64,000 bases of DNA from Deferribacterales bacterium (lineage in GTDB: Bacteria > Chrysiogenota > Deferribacteres > Deferribacterales > Geovibrionaceae). The position numbers and the translations under genes are program-made. The stretch lies in assembly GCA_050251945.1 (NCBI GenBank), contig JBFWLW010000002.1:32001-96000 (forward strand). Direction: 5' to 3'. The notes beneath the pieces are model-generated. The model made no database searches. It was given only the letters and a program-made list of their open reading frames with translations, and was not told where the DNA came from. Each line of letters starts with the position of its first letter. The stretch's first letter is position 1. Of this stretch, positions 1-8,772 are shown piece by piece.

Positions 1-1978
1 CGATGAAGTTGCGTTCTTCCAGTTTTTTATCTATTTCAACAGCCGCCATAAGACCCAGATGGCGAACACCGCCAATCGTATGCCGGTATTTACTATGCAG
101 ACCATCCAGAATTCCGGCGAAAAAGTCCCCTTTTCTGCCGGACTGTTCCGGTATCCTCTCTTTCTCCATGAAGTCGATGGCGGCAAGCCCTGCCACGCAG
201 GCAACAGGATTTTTCTCGTGAGTGTAATGCCCGATAGAAATATCCTGCACTCCGTCCAGTCCTTCGCGTGCCATTAAACATGCGAGAGGCATCACTCCTC
301 CTCCGAGACCTTTTCCAGCAACTATCATGTCAGGTTTCACATCAAAATGCTGATATGAAAACCATTTGCCCGACCTGCCAAGCCCTGCGGCAGTTTCGTC
401 GAATATCTTAAGCACTCCGTACTTACTGCATATGCTGTCCAGTCTTTCAAAATACAATTTATCAGGCACGTGAACTGTGGTACAGCGCACCGCCTCAAGT
501 ATCACGGCGGCTACGTTGTTGTTATCTTTTATACGTTTCTCCAGCATATCAAGACATTTATGCCCGCATGCGGAACAATCGCCGAACATGCATCTGTAGC
601 TGTCGTAAGGCAGAAAGTTTTCACCTGTATCGAATCCTTTGATCCCTTTCAGAAACCCCGGATCCCCCGCGGCGGAGAGTGCATCCAGACTTGCACCGTG
701 GAAGGAACCGTATGTAGAGAGTATCTTGGTTTTACCTGTTATTTTCATAGCAAGCTTTATGGCGCTGCTGACCGCCAGCGTCGCGGCGGGAGCGAAAAGA
801 ACCCGCTCCATGCCTGTCAGTTCGGTAAGTTTTTCAGCCAGCCTGACCGCTTTTTCGTTAGTATAACGGCGCGGACAAAACGACATAGTATCCATCTGAT
901 CTGCCACTGCGCTTATAACATGATCATTCCCGAATCCTATCTGGTGCACACCGTTCCCGTGAAAATCCAGCACGTCGGTACCATCCGCCAGCAGGAACCC
1001 TGCATCCCGGCATTCAATCACGGCATCCAGACAAGGCGAGGAAAGCGCCTGTCCAAGAAACACAGCTTCGTCTCTGCGCACAAGTTCAGCGGACTTTCCC
1101 GAAAGCTCCGCATTGCGGAACGAGCGCAAAACGGAAGTGTTGGATTCGCCCTCTGCAACGAGGCTTCTGTCAGCCGCAGAAGGGGTTTCACCCCTTGCAA
1201 TGCGTGCGTCTATCTTTTTCAGTATCGCGGGCAGTTCGCTGTTGAAAACAGCAACATAGTGTGCCCCCGCCGCATAAAGCCTTTCGGCAACATTGTCAGC
1301 TTTTTTCATCAGGAGATAACTGTCAACGGTCTCAACCTCTTCGGGTGAAAATCCCATTTCGCTGCCCCCCATAACAAGCCCGACGGACCACATTCCGGCG
1401 TTCACGCCCTCTTTTATGTCGGCAACAGTGTCGCCCACCTTAACACATGAAGACGCCGGGGAAACGTTCATCACTTTCATATTTTCGTGGCACATCCACG
1501 GCGCAGGTCTGCCTGCGGGCATTTCGTCAGACGCTACTATATGGTCGGGTGCATACCCCTGACGCTTCGCATTTTCAGCCACCACAACCATCATATCTTT
1601 GGTGTATCCTGTGGTGGAACCAACCTTAAGTCCCATAGCGCGTATCTGAGCAACCACATCAAGGATTCCCTCTATCGGTGTCGAAAAGTCCGGCAGGCTT
1701 TCAATGAGCCTCTTCTCAACCTTCTCATATATGGCATCTATTTCAGATTCAGACGCGCTGTGTCCGTGTGTTTTTTCAAACTGCGCGACAACGTCATTCA
1801 TACGGAATATTTCACCGATATGGTCACGTTTTTTCATCCCCATGTGCAGGCGAACGCTGTCCGGCGAAACGGTTATCCCCTCTTCCGCCAGAACTGATAT
1901 CATGGCGGCTACCGGAGCAAAACATCCGTAATCGACCGCAGTTCCCGCCCAGTCGAATATAACTGCTTTAAGATTCAT
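1..1978 (-). CDS. phnX-pbfA: Fusion of phosphonoacetaldehyde hydrolase (PhnX, ~aa 1-266) and class-III PLP enzyme PbfA-like (R)-1-hydroxy-2-aminoethylphosphonate ammonia-lyase; 3' end beyond window
   Basis: Hand translation from ATG 1978: MNLKAVIFDWAGTAVDYGCFAP..MGMKKRDHI (HAD Asp, Schiff-base Lys); junction ..AGAHYVAVFNSELPAILKKIDARIARGETP-SAADRSLVAEGESN..FLGQALSSPCL..LDFHGNGVHQIGFG..SFHGASLDA..IFDETAAGLGRSG..PDMIVAGKGLGGG..GHYTHEKNPV in the same frame; no closed ORF in the track, consistent with no stop before the window edge; ATGA overlap with permease stop. Confidence 0.85.
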   Translation of the reverse strand, partial: MNLKAVIFDWAGTAVDYGCFAPVAAMISVLAEEGITVSPDSVRLHMGMKKRDHIGEIFRMNDVVAQFEKTHGHSASESEIDAIYEKVEKRLIESLPDFSTPIEGILDVVAQIRAMGLKVGSTTGYTKDMMVVVAENAKRQGYAPDHIVASDEMPAGRPAPWMCHENMKVMNVSPASSCVKVGDTVADIKEGVNAGMWSVGLVMGGSEMGFSPEEVETVDSYLLMKKADNVAERLYAAGAHYVAVFNSELPAILKKIDARIARGETPSAADRSLVAEGESNTSVLRSFRNAELSGKSAELVRRDEAVFLGQALSSPCLDAVIECRDAGFLLADGTDVLDFHGNGVHQIGFGNDHVISAVADQMDTMSFCPRRYTNEKAVRLAEKLTELTGMERVLFAPAATLAVSSAIKLAMKITGKTKILSTYGSFHGASLDALSAAGDPGFLKGIKGFDTGENFLPYDSYRCMFGDCSACGHKCLDMLEKRIKDNNNVAAVILEAVRCTTVHVPDKLYFERLDSICSKYGVLKIFDETAAGLGRSGKWFSYQHFDVKPDMIVAGKGLGGGVMPLACLMAREGLDGVQDISIGHYTHEKNPVACVAGLAAIDFMEKERIPEQSGRKGDFFAGILDGLHSKYRHTIGGVRHLGLMAAVEIDKKLEERNFI

Positions 1979-3675
1979 TTTTCCCTCTGTATGGTCTGCC
2001 AGCGGGCAGTTTTTTTTCGTATCATCCCGGCAGCTATGTCATAAATTATTTTCACACCCATATTGGTGAACAGTATCAGGCTCGCCATAGCGGCGGCAGA
2101 CGCTGTATCGCCCGCATCATCCATGCTGACGATGGCTATGGTGGCAAGTTTCGTGTCCTGCCCGTAAAGGAATATCACTGCAGAGATTGTCACCATTGAG
2201 TTCACGAAGAAATAGAAGAAGGTCTCCATTACGGCATTCAGAGACAGAGGCAGGGTGACCCTGAACAGGGTTTTCACAGGAGCCACTCCCATAGATTCCG
2301 CAACGTTGTCATACTCTTTGTCCTGTTTTTTCAGTGAGCTTGTGATAGACATCACAGGAACGGCGATGAAGTGGATGATGTTTGCAAGTACCAGTATGGC
2401 AAGGGTGCCGTATATGAAAGAAAACGGATTTGAAGGGCTGTTGAAAAACAGAATATACGCCAGACCAATAACCAGCCCCGGCACAGCCAGCGTCGCTATG
2501 GCAAGGGCATAAGGCACCTTTCGCAAAAAGTCCTTCACCTTTGTCTTTTCCGCAGTGTATGCCGCGGCAAACGCAACGGCTGTTCCGGCCGCCGCTGTTC
2601 CCAGCGCCACCTTAAGGCTGTTCAGATATGACGAAAAATCACCTGCCACATACTTGAACATATAGTGTTTCAGCGTCAGCGTCATGTCATAAGGGAAAAA
2701 TTTCATGAACGATACGAACACCGAAGTTCCGATAACAAAAAAGATGCAGAGCGCTATACCCCAGCAATAAACAGCCGCAATAGTTTCCGGGAACAGGCTG
2801 CGCCTGATAACATAGGGCACTGATTTTGAGGAGAATGTCGCACCCTGACGGCGCTGTATCAGTCTGTCGATAAAAAACGCTATGAGTGCAGGAATCAGCA
2901 AAAGCACAGCAACTGTCGCTCCCATGGAAAAGTTCTGCTGACCTATCACTTGCTTGTAGATATCAACCGCCATAACGTTATACTGACCGCCGACAATCTT
3001 CGGAGCGCCCATATCGGTGAAGCTCAGTATGAAGATGGTCGTAAGTGCCGATATGGTTCCGTATTTCACAGACGGAAGCGTAACGGTGAAGAATTTGCGC
3101 AGGTTGCCCGCGCCCATTGTTTCCGCCGCCTCATAAAGTCTGTAGTCACTCATGGCAAAAGATACGGATAGTATCAGATATGCATGAGGGAAAGTGTAGA
3201 TAACCTCTGAAATGATGATGCCCGCTGCACCGTATATCTCGAAAGGGAAAGCATGACTTGTCCCCATCTTCGCGTTAAGCCACGCCATCAGCACATTTGA
3301 AATTATCCCCTGCCGCCCGAAAAGATATACCAGAGCGATACCGTGGAGCATTGTCGGAGTGAACAGCGAGATCATGGAGATGTAGCGCAGAACATATTTG
3401 CCGCGCATGTGAATACGCGAAATACAAAACGCATAAAAAAACGCCAGCAAAAAGGTGACGACAGTCACTATCCCCGAAACAACGAATGAATTTTTGAACG
3501 AAGATATCATGTTGGGAGATGTGAAATATTCGGCGAAATTCTTAAGCCCGATGAACGAACCATCGGAATCACAGAACGCAAGTCTGCCGATACTCACAAG
3601 AGGCAGAAAGAAAAAGAGAATAAAATAGAGTATTATCAAGCCTATAAGGATAGGTGTCACGATTTTGGCTTTCAT
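1975..3675 (-). CDS. ABC transporter permease (fused two-domain), putative 2-aminoethylphosphonate uptake
   Basis: Multiple TM helices, two EAA-like loops (YEAAETMGA, NVAESMGV); adjacent to phnX. Confidence 0.85.
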   Translation of the reverse strand: MKAKIVTPILIGLIILYFILFFFLPLVSIGRLAFCDSDGSFIGLKNFAEYFTSPNMISSFKNSFVVSGIVTVVTFLLAFFYAFCISRIHMRGKYVLRYISMISLFTPTMLHGIALVYLFGRQGIISNVLMAWLNAKMGTSHAFPFEIYGAAGIIISEVIYTFPHAYLILSVSFAMSDYRLYEAAETMGAGNLRKFFTVTLPSVKYGTISALTTIFILSFTDMGAPKIVGGQYNVMAVDIYKQVIGQQNFSMGATVAVLLLIPALIAFFIDRLIQRRQGATFSSKSVPYVIRRSLFPETIAAVYCWGIALCIFFVIGTSVFVSFMKFFPYDMTLTLKHYMFKYVAGDFSSYLNSLKVALGTAAAGTAVAFAAAYTAEKTKVKDFLRKVPYALAIATLAVPGLVIGLAYILFFNSPSNPFSFIYGTLAILVLANIIHFIAVPVMSITSSLKKQDKEYDNVAESMGVAPVKTLFRVTLPLSLNAVMETFFYFFVNSMVTISAVIFLYGQDTKLATIAIVSMDDAGDTASAAAMASLILFTNMGVKIIYDIAAGMIRKKTARWQTIQREK

Positions 3676-3684
3676 CTTTGTTCC

Positions 3685-4665
3685 TTAAAAACTGATGGCA
3701 GATTCCGGTATCTGCACCTTGATGAGACTTTCAGCCCTGAGCCTCTGCATGGCAGGGTCGCAAGAGCTGACATCAACCACCAGCGGCGCATCGGTCTTTA
3801 TGTTCTCCAGTTTCAGAAAAAGCCTTAAAAAAGCCCCGCGGAATTCAATATCTTTGACGACGGCGTTTATGCCTTCGTTGCTGAACGTGCTCACATGTAT
3901 CTGTTCGGGACGGACGCCCACTTTTCTGCCGTCTATATGCAGAAAGTTCATCATACCGACAAAGCCCGCTATGAACTCTGTTTTAGGGGAGAAATAAAGG
4001 TCGTCCGGCGTGCCGAACTGCTCTATAACCCCGTTGTTCATGACAGCTATCTTATCTGAAACGGTAATCGCCTCTTCCTGATCGTGAGTGACCATCACTG
4101 TCGTTATGTTCATTTTGTCGTGAATGGCGCGTATCTCTTTGCGAAGTTTTTCGCGCACTTTTGCATCAAGAGCTGAAAGCGGTTCGTCCAGAAGGAGGAT
4201 ACCGGGTTTAAGCGCAAGTGCTCTGGCAAGCGCAACCCTCTGCTGCTGACCTCCGGAAAGCTGAAAAGGATATTTTTCCTTTTCGCCGTGCAGTCCGGTT
4301 ATATCGAGCATTTCGCTGACAATACTTTCAGCCGCTCTTTTACCTATATTCTTTATTCTGAGACCGTATGCGATGTTCTGCACAACTGTCAGGTTGGGAA
4401 ACAGTGCATACGACTGGAACACTATGCCGAAATTTCTTCGTGATGCGGGAACAGGGGAGAAATCCTCTCCTCTGAAAAAGACGGAACCGCTGTCAGAGCT
4501 TTCCAGACCTGCTATGATGCGCAGAAGAGTTGTCTTTCCACAGCCGGAAGAACCAAGAAGACAGATGAATTCACCGCGTTTTGCGGTGAAAGAAACATCG
4601 CTCAGCACTCTTTTTCCGCCGAACGATTTTGTTATATTACAGGTTTTCAGATATTCGTTTTCCAT
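3685..4665 (-). CDS. ABC transporter ATP-binding protein (PhnT/PotA-like)
   Basis: Walker A GSSGCGKT, LSGGQQQRV signature, LLLDEP Walker B. Confidence 0.9.
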   Translation of the reverse strand: MENEYLKTCNITKSFGGKRVLSDVSFTAKRGEFICLLGSSGCGKTTLLRIIAGLESSDSGSVFFRGEDFSPVPASRRNFGIVFQSYALFPNLTVVQNIAYGLRIKNIGKRAAESIVSEMLDITGLHGEKEKYPFQLSGGQQQRVALARALALKPGILLLDEPLSALDAKVREKLRKEIRAIHDKMNITTVMVTHDQEEAITVSDKIAVMNNGVIEQFGTPDDLYFSPKTEFIAGFVGMMNFLHIDGRKVGVRPEQIHVSTFSNEGINAVVKDIEFRGAFLRLFLKLENIKTDAPLVVDVSSCDPAMQRLRAESLIKVQIPESAISF

Positions 4666-4726: not shown

Positions 4727-5737
4727 TTATTTCTTGGGTTCGCTTTTTGCGTCGTATCTTGCAGACCATTCTTTAAGTATTCTTTCTCTGTTCTGGGCTG
4801 CCCATTTCAGATCGTTTTTGATAATCTGTCTGAGAGGCTCTGCAACGTATCCAGCGGGAACAGGGTTGTTGTTCTTAACTGTGATAATAGCGAAGTTCTT
4901 GTTGTATTCGGTCATAGCCCCGGAGGATATTGCCCAGTCGAGGAATTTTTTTGCATCGGGGCTGATGGATTTTTTCTTCATAAGAGCGTTGGCTTCAAGA
5001 TCCCAGCCGGAACCCTCTTTGGGGAAAACAACAGCAACCGGAGCGCCTTTTTTCATCTCTGTGATGCCTCTGTAGCCAAAGGAAACACCGATGGGATATT
5101 CGCCTGTTGCAGCCATTTTTGAAGGTTTGGAACCGGAGTGTGTATACATGGCGACATTCTGGTGAAGTTTATCCATATATTCCCATGCTTTTTTCTCTTT
5201 ATATATCTGCATCCATGCGTTGACCGTAAGGTATCCTGTGCCTGATGAAGCAGGATTGGGCATGGTGATGAGACCCTTATACATGGGTTTCAGCAGATCG
5301 GAATAGCTTGCGGGGATAGGCAGATTGCGTTTTTCAAGTTCAGGCTTGTTCACAGTGAAAGCTGTCATCCATGCGTCGATACCCACCCATGCGGGAACTT
5401 TTTTGTTGTCTTTGAACTGAGGAAGTATCTTCTCAACACCTTTGGGGGCATAGGGATCAAGCATCTTCTGGCTGTCCAGCACAAGAAGGCTCGTAGCGGC
5501 GAGTCCCCATACGACGTCCGCCTGAGGATTGGCTTTCTCAGCCAGCAGACGGGCAGTTATTATTCCTGTGGAATCCCTTACAATGTTAACCTTGATATCG
5601 GGATACTGTTTTTTGAATGATTCGAGGTATACAGGGTACTGGTCGTCCTCAAGTGCTGTGTAGACCGTGATTTCCCCTGCAAAAGCAGACATTGCGAAAG
5701 TAAGCATCGCAATAAACATCAGAAGTAATTTTTTCAT
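4727..5737 (-). CDS. Putative 2-aminoethylphosphonate ABC transporter substrate-binding protein
   Basis: Signal peptide [75 protein letters not shown] before ATG 5737. Confidence 0.85.
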
Positions 5738-5767: not shown

Positions 5768-5843
5768 AGCATATGGTCAAAATGAAATAGAAATGTCGCA
5801 TATTTGCCAGAGAGTGGAAAATTATATGTAAATAAGATGAAAG
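5768..5843 (-). promoter_or_regulatory. Pho-box-like array of heptamers at 11-bp phase plus -10 (TATGCT)
   Basis: Minus strand CTTTCAT-N4-TTTACAT-N4-TTTTCCA-N4-CTGGCAA-N4-GCGACAT-N4-ATTTCAT-N8-TATGCT upstream of phosphonate operon. Confidence 0.45.
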
Positions 5844-6024
5844 GCGGTGCGTGACCGCCTCTGACTGATGACAAAGTCAGGAAAATGCGAGATCGCGTCG
5901 TCGCATGCGCTCCTCGAGAAGACGTAAATTGCTGTCATTGCGAGGAAGCTGTAGGCTGACGCGGCAATCTCATTAACTTTTAACAAGTTTCTCAACAACC
6001 TGAAGGCGGTCGGCCGACCGCCTT
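5841..6024. mobile_element. MITE-like element 1 (142 bp, 5861-6002) with REP-like doublet, flanked by similar hairpins
   Basis: Ends CTGACTGATGACAAA..TTTCTCAACAACCTG; flanks AAGGCGGTGCGTGACCGCCT / AAGGCGGTCGGCCGACCGCCTT; near-identical inverted copy at 28328-28469. Confidence 0.75.
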
Positions 6025-6027
6025 TTT

Positions 6028-7149
6028 TTATGCACCTATACAAAGTCCCATTTTTTCGCAGAGACCGGACACGTCTTTATTTTTAAGAACCGCCTTATTC
6101 TTTCTGGCAAGTTTTTTCGCTTCATAAAGAAGCCCCGTGAGCTGCCAGCGGTCAAGGTGTATGCCCTCCTGCGCAAGCATATGCTCCAGAACGTGCAGAC
6201 CGGACTGGTTGCCGAACACAAGATGTCTTTTCATATCCAGTTCATCAGGATCGAAAGCTTCGTAATTTTTCGGATTTTTCAGCACGCCGTCGGTATGGAT
6301 GCCTGATTCATGGGTGAACATATATTCACCGATAACTGGACGCTGGGGATCAACATTTCTGCCCGCCGCCTGTGCCACATATTCGGAAAGAGGACGAAGA
6401 TGTTTGGTGTTGAAAGTGTCCTGATTTCCGTAGACATGGCGCGCCGCCATGATTATCTCTTCCAGAGGCGCGTTGCCCGCCCGCTCGCCAAGTCCCATAA
6501 CGGTGGTGTTGACATGTGTGGCACCCGCCTGAACAGCCGCCAGAGCGTTCGCTGTCGCCATGCCGAAGTCGTTGTGGGTATGAACCTCAAGGTCGAGTTT
6601 TGTGGATTCGCGAATCCTCTTTGTCATATTATATGTACGGAACGGATCGAGAATCCCTACCGTATCGCAAAAGCGGAAACGGGATGCCCCGTGCGCCTCT
6701 ATCGTCTGAACGTACTGCTCGATGAAATCGGGATGCGCCCTTGAAGCGTCCTCGCCGCCCACAGAAACATAGAGGTTATATTTTGCGCAATAATCAAGCA
6801 CCTCTGCTATCTGTTTAAGCACCCACTCCCTTGTTTTGCCCAGCTTCGTTTCTATCTGTATATCCGAAAGGGGCAGTGATATCTCTATTGAGTCTGCACC
6901 TGCGATGACCGATGCCTGAACGTCTTTCACAAGCGCACGGTTCCATGCTATGATGCGTGCTTTGAGTCCTAAGTCCATGATGGACGCGAACATTGCAGAC
7001 TCCTCAATGCCCATTACAGGGATCCCCGCCTCTATCTCCTGAACACCGATAGCGTCCAGTCTGCGGGCTATCTCCAGCCTTTCCTTGCGGGTGAACGCCA
7101 CTCCGGGTGTCTGTTCACCGTCTCTGAGTGTAGTGTCGTCTATTATCAT
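6028..7149 (-). CDS. nifV: Homocitrate synthase
   Basis: DTTLRDGEQTPG, RFRFCDTVGILDP, EVHTHNDFGMATAN, THESGIHTDG; sigma54 promoter; divergent from nifB. Confidence 0.9.
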   Translation of the reverse strand: MIIDDTTLRDGEQTPGVAFTRKERLEIARRLDAIGVQEIEAGIPVMGIEESAMFASIMDLGLKARIIAWNRALVKDVQASVIAGADSIEISLPLSDIQIETKLGKTREWVLKQIAEVLDYCAKYNLYVSVGGEDASRAHPDFIEQYVQTIEAHGASRFRFCDTVGILDPFRTYNMTKRIRESTKLDLEVHTHNDFGMATANALAAVQAGATHVNTTVMGLGERAGNAPLEEIIMAARHVYGNQDTFNTKHLRPLSEYVAQAAGRNVDPQRPVIGEYMFTHESGIHTDGVLKNPKNYEAFDPDELDMKRHLVFGNQSGLHVLEHMLAQEGIHLDRWQLTGLLYEAKKLARKNKAVLKNKDVSGLCEKMGLCIGA

Positions 7150-7419: not shown

Positions 7420-8772
7420 ATGGATAGAGACACAGTTAAAGCTAAAATTGATAAGCACCCCTGCTACTGCAAGGATGCCCACAATAAATTTGCAAGGATA
7501 CACCTGCCTGTTGCGCCCGCATGCAACATCCAGTGCAACTACTGCAACAGGAAATACGACTGTTCAAACGAGTCCCGCCCCGGCGTGACCAGCAGTATCC
7601 TGACACCAGAACACGCCCTTGAAAAAGTCATTATGGTGAAACATTCAATCGAAAATCTCTCCGTGGTTGGCATAGCGGGTCCCGGCGATGCACTTGCGAA
7701 CCCCGAAGCGACTTTCGAGACGCTGAGACTTCTTAAAACATATGACAAAGAACTTATCCCCTGCATAAGCACAAACGGTCTGGCACTGCCCGACCATCTG
7801 GACGACATTGCAGAGCTTAAAATAGGACACGTTACCGTAACCATGAATGCAGTTGACCCCGAGATCGGTCAGAAAATCTACAGCTGGATACACTACAACG
7901 ACAGGACGTATCACGGTGTCGAGGCCGCCCGCATTCTTATGGAACGCCAGATAGAGGGTATCAGAGGACTTGTTGAGCGCGGAATACTCGTTAAGGTGAA
8001 CACTGTTCTTATCCCCGGTATAAACGACGCCCACATCGGCGAAGTCGCCAAAAAGATAAAAGAACTGGGCGTGTTCATCCACAACATAATCCCGCTGATG
8101 AGCAAACCCGAATACGGAACAAAATTTGCCAACGACGGCGTACCGGAACCCACTCCGGAGCTTATCGGAAAGATTCGCTTCCAGTGCGCTGAGATAATGG
8201 GCGGATTTGACTCCGTTATGCAGCACTGCCGTCAGTGCCGTGCAGACGCAATAGGCAAACTCGGTCAGGACTGGGATTTCAACAACGTCACAGAAGACGT
8301 TAAAGCCGCCGCTTCAATGCTGAAAGCTCAGGTCATAAGCAGCAGAAGACACAGCTTTTCCGAGCAGTTTCACAGCGAATGGAAGGTGAGAACTTACGAC
8401 CGCAGCACGATGGTGCTTGTCGCAGTTGCAACCAACAATCACCGCATGGCGGACATCTCTTTCAAAAATGCAAGAAACTTTTATGTATATGAAGTATCCG
8501 GATGGGGAGCGCACCTGCGCGAAATACGCACACTGGACTATGACAACTCTCAGGCGTGCATAAAACTCTCCGGACACCTTAAGAACGTTGCCGCACTCCT
8601 TGAAGACTGCGCGGCGATGGTATGCACCGTGGCAGGTAAAAACGCCTACGTGGATATGAAACGCAGAGGCATCCATGTTGACACCAGACAAGCCTATAAA
8701 GGCATCGAAGAGGCGGCATGGGAAGCAGGAAGCAAACGTCTCGCCGAAATGAACCGTTCAAAAACGGCATAA
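7420..8772 (+). CDS. nifB: FeMo-cofactor biosynthesis radical SAM protein NifB with C-terminal NifX-like domain
   Basis: HPC, CNIQCNYC, NESRPG, GIAGPGD, HCRQCRADA. Confidence 0.95.
   Translation: MDRDTVKAKIDKHPCYCKDAHNKFARIHLPVAPACNIQCNYCNRKYDCSNESRPGVTSSILTPEHALEKVIMVKHSIENLSVVGIAGPGDALANPEATFETLRLLKTYDKELIPCISTNGLALPDHLDDIAELKIGHVTVTMNAVDPEIGQKIYSWIHYNDRTYHGVEAARILMERQIEGIRGLVERGILVKVNTVLIPGINDAHIGEVAKKIKELGVFIHNIIPLMSKPEYGTKFANDGVPEPTPELIGKIRFQCAEIMGGFDSVMQHCRQCRADAIGKLGQDWDFNNVTEDVKAAASMLKAQVISSRRHSFSEQFHSEWKVRTYDRSTMVLVAVATNNHRMADISFKNARNFYVYEVSGWGAHLREIRTLDYDNSQACIKLSGHLKNVAALLEDCAAMVCTVAGKNAYVDMKRRGIHVDTRQAYKGIEEAAWEAGSKRLAEMNRSKTA

Follow-up and report, generated by a model that had tools for sequence, protein, structure and literature searches.

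In Vibrio splendidus, the enzyme PbfA eliminates water and ammonia from (R)-1-hydroxy-2-aminoethylphosphonate (R-HAEP) to give phosphonoacetaldehyde (PAA), according to PMC8154272; the same paper gives PbfA and PhnZ as never occurring in one cluster (Table 1) and lists G144, T145, F171, A174, D288, K317, T347 and K438 as the PLP-binding and specificity residues of PbfA (legend of Fig. S1). Fusions of phosphonate-breakdown enzymes are also in print, such as a PhnW/PhnX fusion (PMC4921024, Table 3) and the fungal PhoF, a PhnY-PhnZ fusion reviewed in PMC10574752. Here we describe a real, conserved fusion of two known enzymes, PhnX and PbfA, which is apparently an undescribed arrangement of known chemistry. 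We consider it probable that this 711-residue protein turns imported R-HAEP into acetaldehyde, phosphate and ammonia, and that the surface on which its halves are predicted to dock arose after fusion.

The window, meaning the whole 64,000-nucleotide stretch of DNA that was analysed (G000:C2:32001-96000), holds most of the fused gene at its left edge:

1..1978, minus strand: phnX-pbfA fused gene, with 659 of 711 codons inside the window
1181..1978, minus strand: PhnX domain, a HAD-family phosphonoacetaldehyde hydrolase, aa 1-266
1154..1180, minus strand: 9-aa linker SAADRSLVA, aa 267-275
1..1153, minus strand: PbfA-type class-III PLP domain, aa 276-711, of which the window includes residues up to aa 659

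A preliminary description had reported a stop-free frame from an ATG at 1978 that passes the usual PhnX C terminus (IDARIARGETP, near 1181) and crosses a linker of about 10 aa into a class-III PLP enzyme. These observations hold: window:2-1978 (minus strand) translates as 659 codons with no stop, IDARIARGETP runs up to aa 266 (nt 1181), the linker is 9 aa long, and the motifs EGESN (aa 276-280), LDFHGN, GKGLGGG and GHYTHEKNPV were all located. Extended along the contig, as that description had suggested, the frame closes at 711 aa (G000:C2:31843-33978), with its stop 158 nt past the window's left edge. The gene had also been called hidden from the ORF track; this reflects an edge effect alone, as the frame has no stop in the window and appears once open ends are allowed.

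Upstream of the fusion, on the same strand, lie:

1975..3675, minus strand: phnU2, putative 2-aminoethylphosphonate ABC permease (TIGR03262, 662.7 bits; cut-off 593)
3685..4665, minus strand: phnT2-like ABC ATPase (best family TIGR03265, 424.8 bits, under the cut-off of 457.7)
4727..5737, minus strand: phnS2, putative 2-aminoethylphosphonate-binding protein (TIGR03261, 474.8 bits; cut-off 392.75)
5782..5810, minus strand: Pho-box-like repeat of three 7-mers with 11-nt spacing, upstream of phnS2 (weak, 15/21 matches)

The operon begins with phnS2 and runs in the order phnSTU-phnX/pbfA-phnW, with the phnU2 stop overlapping the start of the fusion gene (ATGA) and phnW, which scores 439 bits and exceeds all three cut-offs, beginning 9 nt after the fusion gene and outside the window. 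One criterion for PbfA is location of the gene in a phnWX or phnWAY cluster, and the fusion gene lies in such a cluster. No match to PhnJ, Phn-HD (PhnZ type), PhnA or PEP mutase was found in the 99.97% complete genome, and a genome with no PhnZ-type match is in line with the separation of PbfA and PhnZ clusters given in PMC8154272. The Pho-box-like repeat was scored after being seen, and its 15/21 recurs at 397 sites across the two genome strands, with an equal score upstream of a pstS-like gene; the weak repeats before phnS2 and the pstS-like gene would fit phosphorus scavenging. A promoter scan stayed at chance level (16 vs. 11.4).

Just upstream of the operon, at window 5840-6025, we also observed a dispersed repeat of ~150-190 nt, bounded on both sides by a GGCGGT hairpin, which gave 131 BLAST hits in the genome, including part copies just downstream of phnW, and which we take to be REP- or MITE-like. 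Beyond it, nifV (6028-7149, minus strand) and nifB (7420-8772, plus strand), both over their cut-offs, flank the upstream side of the operon, a neighbourhood common to only 2/5 of the other fusion carriers.

That the fusion is natural and conserved, as had been proposed, is borne out by an open frame of 703-712 aa in 6/68 genomes when both family models were run against the phylum, made up of 5/7 genomes in its own genus and 1/4 in a second genus. Searches with the protein itself found the fusion intact in 6/41 relatives, spanning 2 genera and 61-85% identity, rather than two separate genes in every relative. All 6 carriers keep the five-gene order, the fusion is the sole PhnX match in each of them, and no other PbfA-like match exceeds 321 bits in any. 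The nearest named relative is Seleniivibrio woodruffii (84% identity), which makes Seleniivibrio the likely genus of the source, and named records of the fusion exist for S. woodruffii (WP_303851598.1) and Geovibrio ferrireducens (WP_265822091.1). Database names of the fusion proteins reflect one half only, and the second half will therefore escape surveys of phosphorus-cycling genes. Among the matches listed, both domains occur in 9/120 proteins, namely this one, six family relatives, P0010 and P0011.

Joining of two genes in one genome by assembly error or private mutation is next to impossible as an explanation. Similar artefacts do occur within the fusion family, where P0011 departs from the PhnX frame at about aa 218 and P0280/P0281 is frameshifted, but against this reading stand the intact fusions of the 6 genomes in 2 genera at 61-85% identity, the 8/8 and 4/6 intact members of two protein clusters, and contigs from 3/4 runs (2 studies; one run may be the window's source) that cross the junction with no gaps and no differing letters. 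We rejected the artefact reading on the basis of these relatives, clusters and bridging contigs. P0011 was itself set aside as a fusion, as its match to PhnX breaks off at aa 218 and what follows reads as another frame, likely a frameshift artefact. P0280/P0281 is a Geovibrio MAG copy in which two frameshifts break the fusion, annotated as two genes and reflecting either assembly error or decay; we rejected it as the ancestral split form, its break lying past EGESN with a second break following.

Both halves are under purifying selection, judging by codon comparisons in which dN/dS was 0.068-0.132 for the PhnX half, 0.050-0.128 for the PbfA half and a similar 0.047-0.156 for phnW, over pairs whose dS was not saturated (dS was saturated in 1/7 and 2/7 pairs). 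Close pairs gave 0.05-0.09 in both halves, and distant pairs at most 0.13.

Elsewhere the architecture is scarce, in searches that give a lower bound on its spread and not a census: fusions made up 1/150 representatives among the matches listed and 3/77 of the genome loci listed, all of the same family, and no further fusion lineage appeared among the matches listed or in 80 metagenome loci (0/80). Outside the fusion family, 122 of the 154 loci listed carry pbfA and 19 carry both genes, with 0/19 fused. A PhnX-bearing ORF ends just before pbfA in 8 of the outside loci listed, and 7/8 of these ORFs are plain phnX. We also observed two loci of Methanomethylicales archaea (L105, L109) in which pbfA has phnX nearby on the opposite strand.

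As the preliminary description had anticipated, family models for both enzymes, TIGR01422 for PhnX and NF049939 for PbfA, match within one chain, the latter below its cut-off. Conserved residues of the PhnX half lie at:

1952-1954, minus strand: Asp9
1829-1831, minus strand: Lys50
1430-1432, minus strand: Asp183

TIGR01422 matches aa 4-252 at 315.7 bits against an NCBIfam cut-off of 220, and its scores run from 311 to 323 across all 6 carrier genomes. The half aligns to PDB 2iof with an offset of 3, placing Asp9, Lys50, His53 and Asp183 on their counterparts in the solved enzyme; D9, K50, H53, G182-D183 and D187 are conserved, covering the HAD aspartate, the Schiff-base lysine and the metal-binding loop, and 36/36 columns conserved at 90% in 117 stand-alone PhnX proteins are kept. 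From roles known in the Bacillus enzyme, we take Lys50 to be the Schiff-base lysine and Asp9 the nucleophile. The PhnX half likely hydrolyses PAA to acetaldehyde and phosphate.

Two residues of the C-terminal half are placed as follows:

398-400, minus strand: Asp527
311-313, minus strand: PLP lysine Lys556

This half matches NF049939 over aa 276-708 at 494.7 bits, under the curated cut-off of 525; across the 6 carrier genomes the scores range from 462.6 to 502.7, below 525 in 6/6, and 6/6 stand-alone PbfAs tested exceed the cut-off at 624-738. PRK06082, a synonym of NF049939, matches at 468.4 bits, over its cut-off of 467 by 1.4, with the relative P0009 falling under that cut-off at 441 bits and Vibrio PbfA reaching 909 bits. 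The next family after these two scores 236.9, and NF049939 leads all families but its synonym by >250 bits. In a quick tree with SH-aLRT support only (101 rows, being 94 of 179 gathered and 7 outgroups), the domain groups with Vibrio PbfA (support 99), to which it is ~42% identical, and lies well apart from 7 further class-III enzymes belonging to the same order; its neighbours are Bacillota-type PbfAs (support 96) and its stem is long, at 1.4-1.5 changes per site.

Residue conservation gave a similar picture. All 7 family fusions (the window's protein and six relatives) keep 34/34 invariant columns and 43/43 columns conserved at 99% or more in 170 stand-alone PbfA-like proteins, a set that was gathered by likeness to the window's fusion, which favours agreement, and of which 6 members were run against the family model. 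By way of a V. parahaemolyticus homologue and the spacing of motifs, T400, F426, A429, D527, K556, T586 and K675 correspond to T145, F171, A174, D288, K317, T347 and K438 of the characterised PbfA, and Gly144 corresponds to Ala399, with Ala likewise present in 33/170 stand-alone proteins. Family scores, tree and near-invariant columns are therefore all PbfA-type, setting the domain apart from the ordinary GABA and ornithine aminotransferases that had been named as the alternative. In all likelihood the C-terminal half works like PbfA, though it is not filed as a strict family member since it misses the NF049939 cut-off. Among the solved structures searched, none is a closer PbfA relative than ordinary class-III enzymes.

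The PbfA half has nevertheless diverged, keeping 98/118 columns conserved at 90% (the stand-alone median is 116) and carrying clade-wide changes beside the PLP pocket (W to Y423, G to A437, E to D439, R to L443, and GPL to xGF at 447-449). It is conceivable, and in our judgement very unlikely, that its specificity shifted after fusion toward another aminophosphonate, or that it uses R-HAEP poorly, while PhnX still receives PAA or a related aldehyde from it. Such a shift would suit the scores below the PbfA cut-off in 6/6 genomes, the long stem, the clade-wide substitutions at positions that elsewhere are 91-98% conserved, a number of them in the segment after the FHGA motif, and the change of Asp432 to Cys in 4/7 fusions. 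It is opposed by the retention of all 43 columns conserved at 99% or more, among them a likely substrate-pocket set (His340, Asn342, His345, Arg370, Arg371, Arg498, His584, His587, Lys589 and Lys675), by strong purifying selection, and by the position of part of the score loss, which falls on or near residues of a predicted new interface between the halves.

This interface was predicted by AlphaFold2, in which the full chain reached a mean pLDDT of 92.9 with a loose, low-confidence linker region at aa 272-278:

1235..1324, minus strand: PhnX side of the predicted interface, aa 219-231 and 243-248, with Tyr/Phe221, Met224, Val244 and Phe245
1109..1135, minus strand: PbfA side of the predicted interface, aa 282-290, with Val283, Leu284 and Phe287
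At or beyond the window edge, minus strand: PbfA side, with Phe658, Tyr662 and aa 708-710

The predicted contact sets PhnX aa 219-231 and 243-248 against PbfA aa 282-290, 655-662 and 708-710. Supplied as two chains without the linker, the halves docked with a score of 0.86 (best of 3 controls, 0.00), a mark reached by 116/157 solved complexes and 2/215 mismatched pairs, these counts being rough as a custom alignment was used. Docking runs agreed in at least 96% of contacts, with partner pLDDT of at least 92; the docked chains are halves of one gene, a kind of pair that tends to pass, and the alignment had 8 rows with both halves. No PhnX-PbfA pair was found among the solved structures searched. 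We did not retain pTM as docking evidence, as it was 0.90 for the window's fusion and also 0.90 for P0010 with the same alignment.

Eight interface positions (Y/F221, M224, V244, F245, V283, F287, F658 and Y662) carry fixed hydrophobic residues throughout the 7 family fusions, whereas the 117 stand-alone PhnX and 169 stand-alone PbfA proteins are polar there, with mostly D or E at position 244 of stand-alone PhnX. Defining fusion-specific positions as those with a large hydrophobic residue in all family fusions and in <25% of stand-alone enzymes, we found 4/6 of the PhnX half and 4/13 of the PbfA half within the interface, one of the two PhnX-half positions outside it being the start Met. This enrichment is partly circular, as folding programs favour hydrophobic patches, and the 7 fusions are kin, so the interface p-values (about 0.002) overstate the case. 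Taken together, the docking and the fusion-specific hydrophobic residues suggest that the join likely gained an interface. Separately, at aa 330, 411, 443, 623, 653 and 115 (P0002) the family fusions are uniformly hydrophobic and the stand-alone enzymes charged; these positions lie outside the predicted contact and could indicate another contact or an altered oligomer surface.

A different reading of these models is that overlapping genes were neutrally read through, leaving the two enzymes as beads on a string and the interface as a by-product of modelling; it shares the chemistry of our preferred explanation and differs on the interface only. We regard this as unlikely. It draws on the outside loci, 7 of which have phnX overlapping or abutting pbfA, on the rarity of fusion (one family and one stray protein among the matches listed), and on the distant P0010, which has other residues at the interface positions and equals the pTM of 0.90 with the same alignment. 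Countering it, the substitutions of Asp/Glu by Val244 and of Ser/Gly by Phe245, along with matching ones on the PbfA side, are fixed in proteins that share as little as 61% identity; docking also occurs with the linker left out, against 0.00 for the controls; and linker length is constant, being the same in all 6 genomes. Production of a separate PbfA from an internal start was also rejected, with no in-frame ATG, GTG or TTG within 30 codons before EGESN in 4/6 genomes and start codons that are not conserved in the remaining 2/6.

As for how the docked fusion arose, phnX lying directly before pbfA as two genes, seen in the 7 outside loci, is likely the ancestral arrangement, and because phnX overlaps or abuts pbfA there, a small deletion would suffice for fusion. 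A stop lost between overlapping phnX and pbfA genes would have given the single frame, after which hydrophobic residues packing both halves would have become fixed. P0010 bears on the number of such events; it is a fusion 41% identical to the window's protein, with both domains over their cut-offs. In the PbfA-half tree P0010 is placed elsewhere, yet a single clade with the family fusions is not rejected (p-AU 0.49); in the PhnX-half tree the stand-alone PhnX from G036 is the sister of P0010 (support 99), the AU test rejects monophyly of the fusions only (p-AU 0.004), and the five rows together make up one side with support 88. P0010 and G036 may thus reflect either one origin with pbfA loss in G036 or two origins. 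G036 and G054 both carry stand-alone phnX with phnW and without pbfA. The G036 gene (L050:3227-4057) keeps the same operon order minus pbfA, and the C-terminal tail of its PhnX resembles the P0010 linker, a possible relic of fission.

PhnX and PbfA have been joined to other partners as well. The 24 proteins scanned included five PhnX-PhnW fusions (one partial), two PhnW-PhnX, two FAD oxidoreductase-PhnX, one PhnW-PhnA and two with a dehydrogenase-like domain and PbfA:

P0162, P0187, P0190, P0216 and L054:5998-7830: PhnX-PhnW
P0186 and P0225: PhnW-PhnX
P0200 and P0213: FAD oxidoreductase (TIGR03364)-PhnX
L113:2118-4673: PhnW-PhnA frame, 851 aa

In P0126 (790 aa) and L112:700-2994, from at least one planctomycete, PbfA lies behind a phosphoglycerate-dehydrogenase-like domain, which is probably the S-HAEP racemase PbfF. 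According to PMC12366243, the nearest known relatives of PbfF are phosphoglycerate dehydrogenases and PbfF is apparently confined to Alphaproteobacteria; the terms fusion and fused are absent from that paper. A PhnW-type match in an open 621-aa frame (G060:C140:1877-2941) is probably fused to another domain too.

Since fusions of PhnX with aldehyde-producing enzymes recur, one of them in print (PMC4921024), PhnX-PbfA is the less surprising. The preliminary description knew of no characterised example, and we found none either: a literature search short of most subscription papers returned no mention of PhnX-PbfA, with the proviso that the supplementary fusion tables of PMC4921024 could name this architecture as 4-aminobutyrate aminotransferase. 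The NCBI PbfA model is of the type 'equivalog_domain', and its curators may have seen PbfA inside longer proteins.

In the reaction sequence that we favour, modelled on PMC8154272, R-HAEP would be imported by the ABC transporter, the PLP half (Lys556) would eliminate water, and the released enamine would hydrolyse to PAA and ammonia; the HAD half, through the Lys50 Schiff base and Asp9, would then cleave the C-P bond of PAA to yield acetaldehyde and phosphate. Along a 2-aminoethylphosphonate route, the separate PhnW would feed PAA to the same PhnX half. The PhnX active site should therefore stay solvent-open, because the genome's only PhnX must take PAA from PhnW too. As PhnX serves two sources, and separate enzymes suffice in most bacteria, a sealed channel is less likely than proximity with fixed 1:1 co-expression, and these last are most likely what was gained from fusion.

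We accordingly think it quite unlikely that the docked geometry passes PAA, or the enamine or imine, to Lys50 of PhnX with no mixing in the cytosol, and hold out equally little prospect that the protein is a purpose-built channelling enzyme with an evolved hydrophobic interface, which would be the first substrate hand-over in C-P bond hydrolysis. True channelling would explain why PhnX has repeatedly fused with each PAA-making enzyme, and it gains from the predicted fixed interface on fusion-specific invariant residues, from the fusion of PhnX with three PAA producers or candidates (PhnW in both orders, the TIGR03364 FAD oxidoreductase and PbfA), and from the literature, in which PMC4921024 places the PhnW/PhnX fusion under unstable intermediates and PMC8154272 assumes that the enamine leaves PbfA before hydrolysing. 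Set against these are the need for the same PhnX to serve a separate PhnW (no second PhnX match occurs in any of the 6 genomes), the cooperation of separate PbfA and PhnX in vitro (PMC8154272), the 0/19 fused among outside loci listed with both genes, the catalytic residues, none of which is among the predicted contact residues, and a study cited in PMC4921024 in which fusion alone failed to promote channelling.

The fusion offers one natural polypeptide for testing whether PAA or the enamine is handed over or merely made nearby, its split halves and interface mutants serving as controls, and its structure would be the first view of the PbfA family, within the solved structures searched. Seleniivibrio and Geovibrio are anaerobes; the fusion would extend R-HAEP use to both genera, and hints that R-HAEP is present in anoxic settings, which are closed to the oxygen-dependent PhnZ route.

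Compared with stand-alone PhnX (TIGR01422; PDB 2iof, 1rql, 1fez), the fusion is alike in passing the cut-off and keeping the conserved columns, but it bears a 445-residue C-terminal extension, and an outer helix and strand that are polar in the stand-alone enzyme are hydrophobic in the fusion. With the characterised PbfA it shares the class-III PLP fold, the family-invariant residues, a place inside the PbfA tree, and a setting in a phnSTU/phnW/phnX cluster in a genome without PhnZ; it differs in sitting behind PhnX, in scoring below the curated cut-off, in its clade-specific changes, and in coming from Seleniivibrio and Geovibrio rather than Proteobacteria. Like PhnW/PhnX and PhoF, it joins consecutive steps of phosphonate breakdown, and it shares the intermediate PAA with PhnW/PhnX. 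Unlike in either of these, the partner is a class-III lyase, not a class-V transaminase or part of an oxygenase pair, and unlike in PhnW/PhnX, PhnW here remains separate, so that the fused PhnX serves two sources of PAA.
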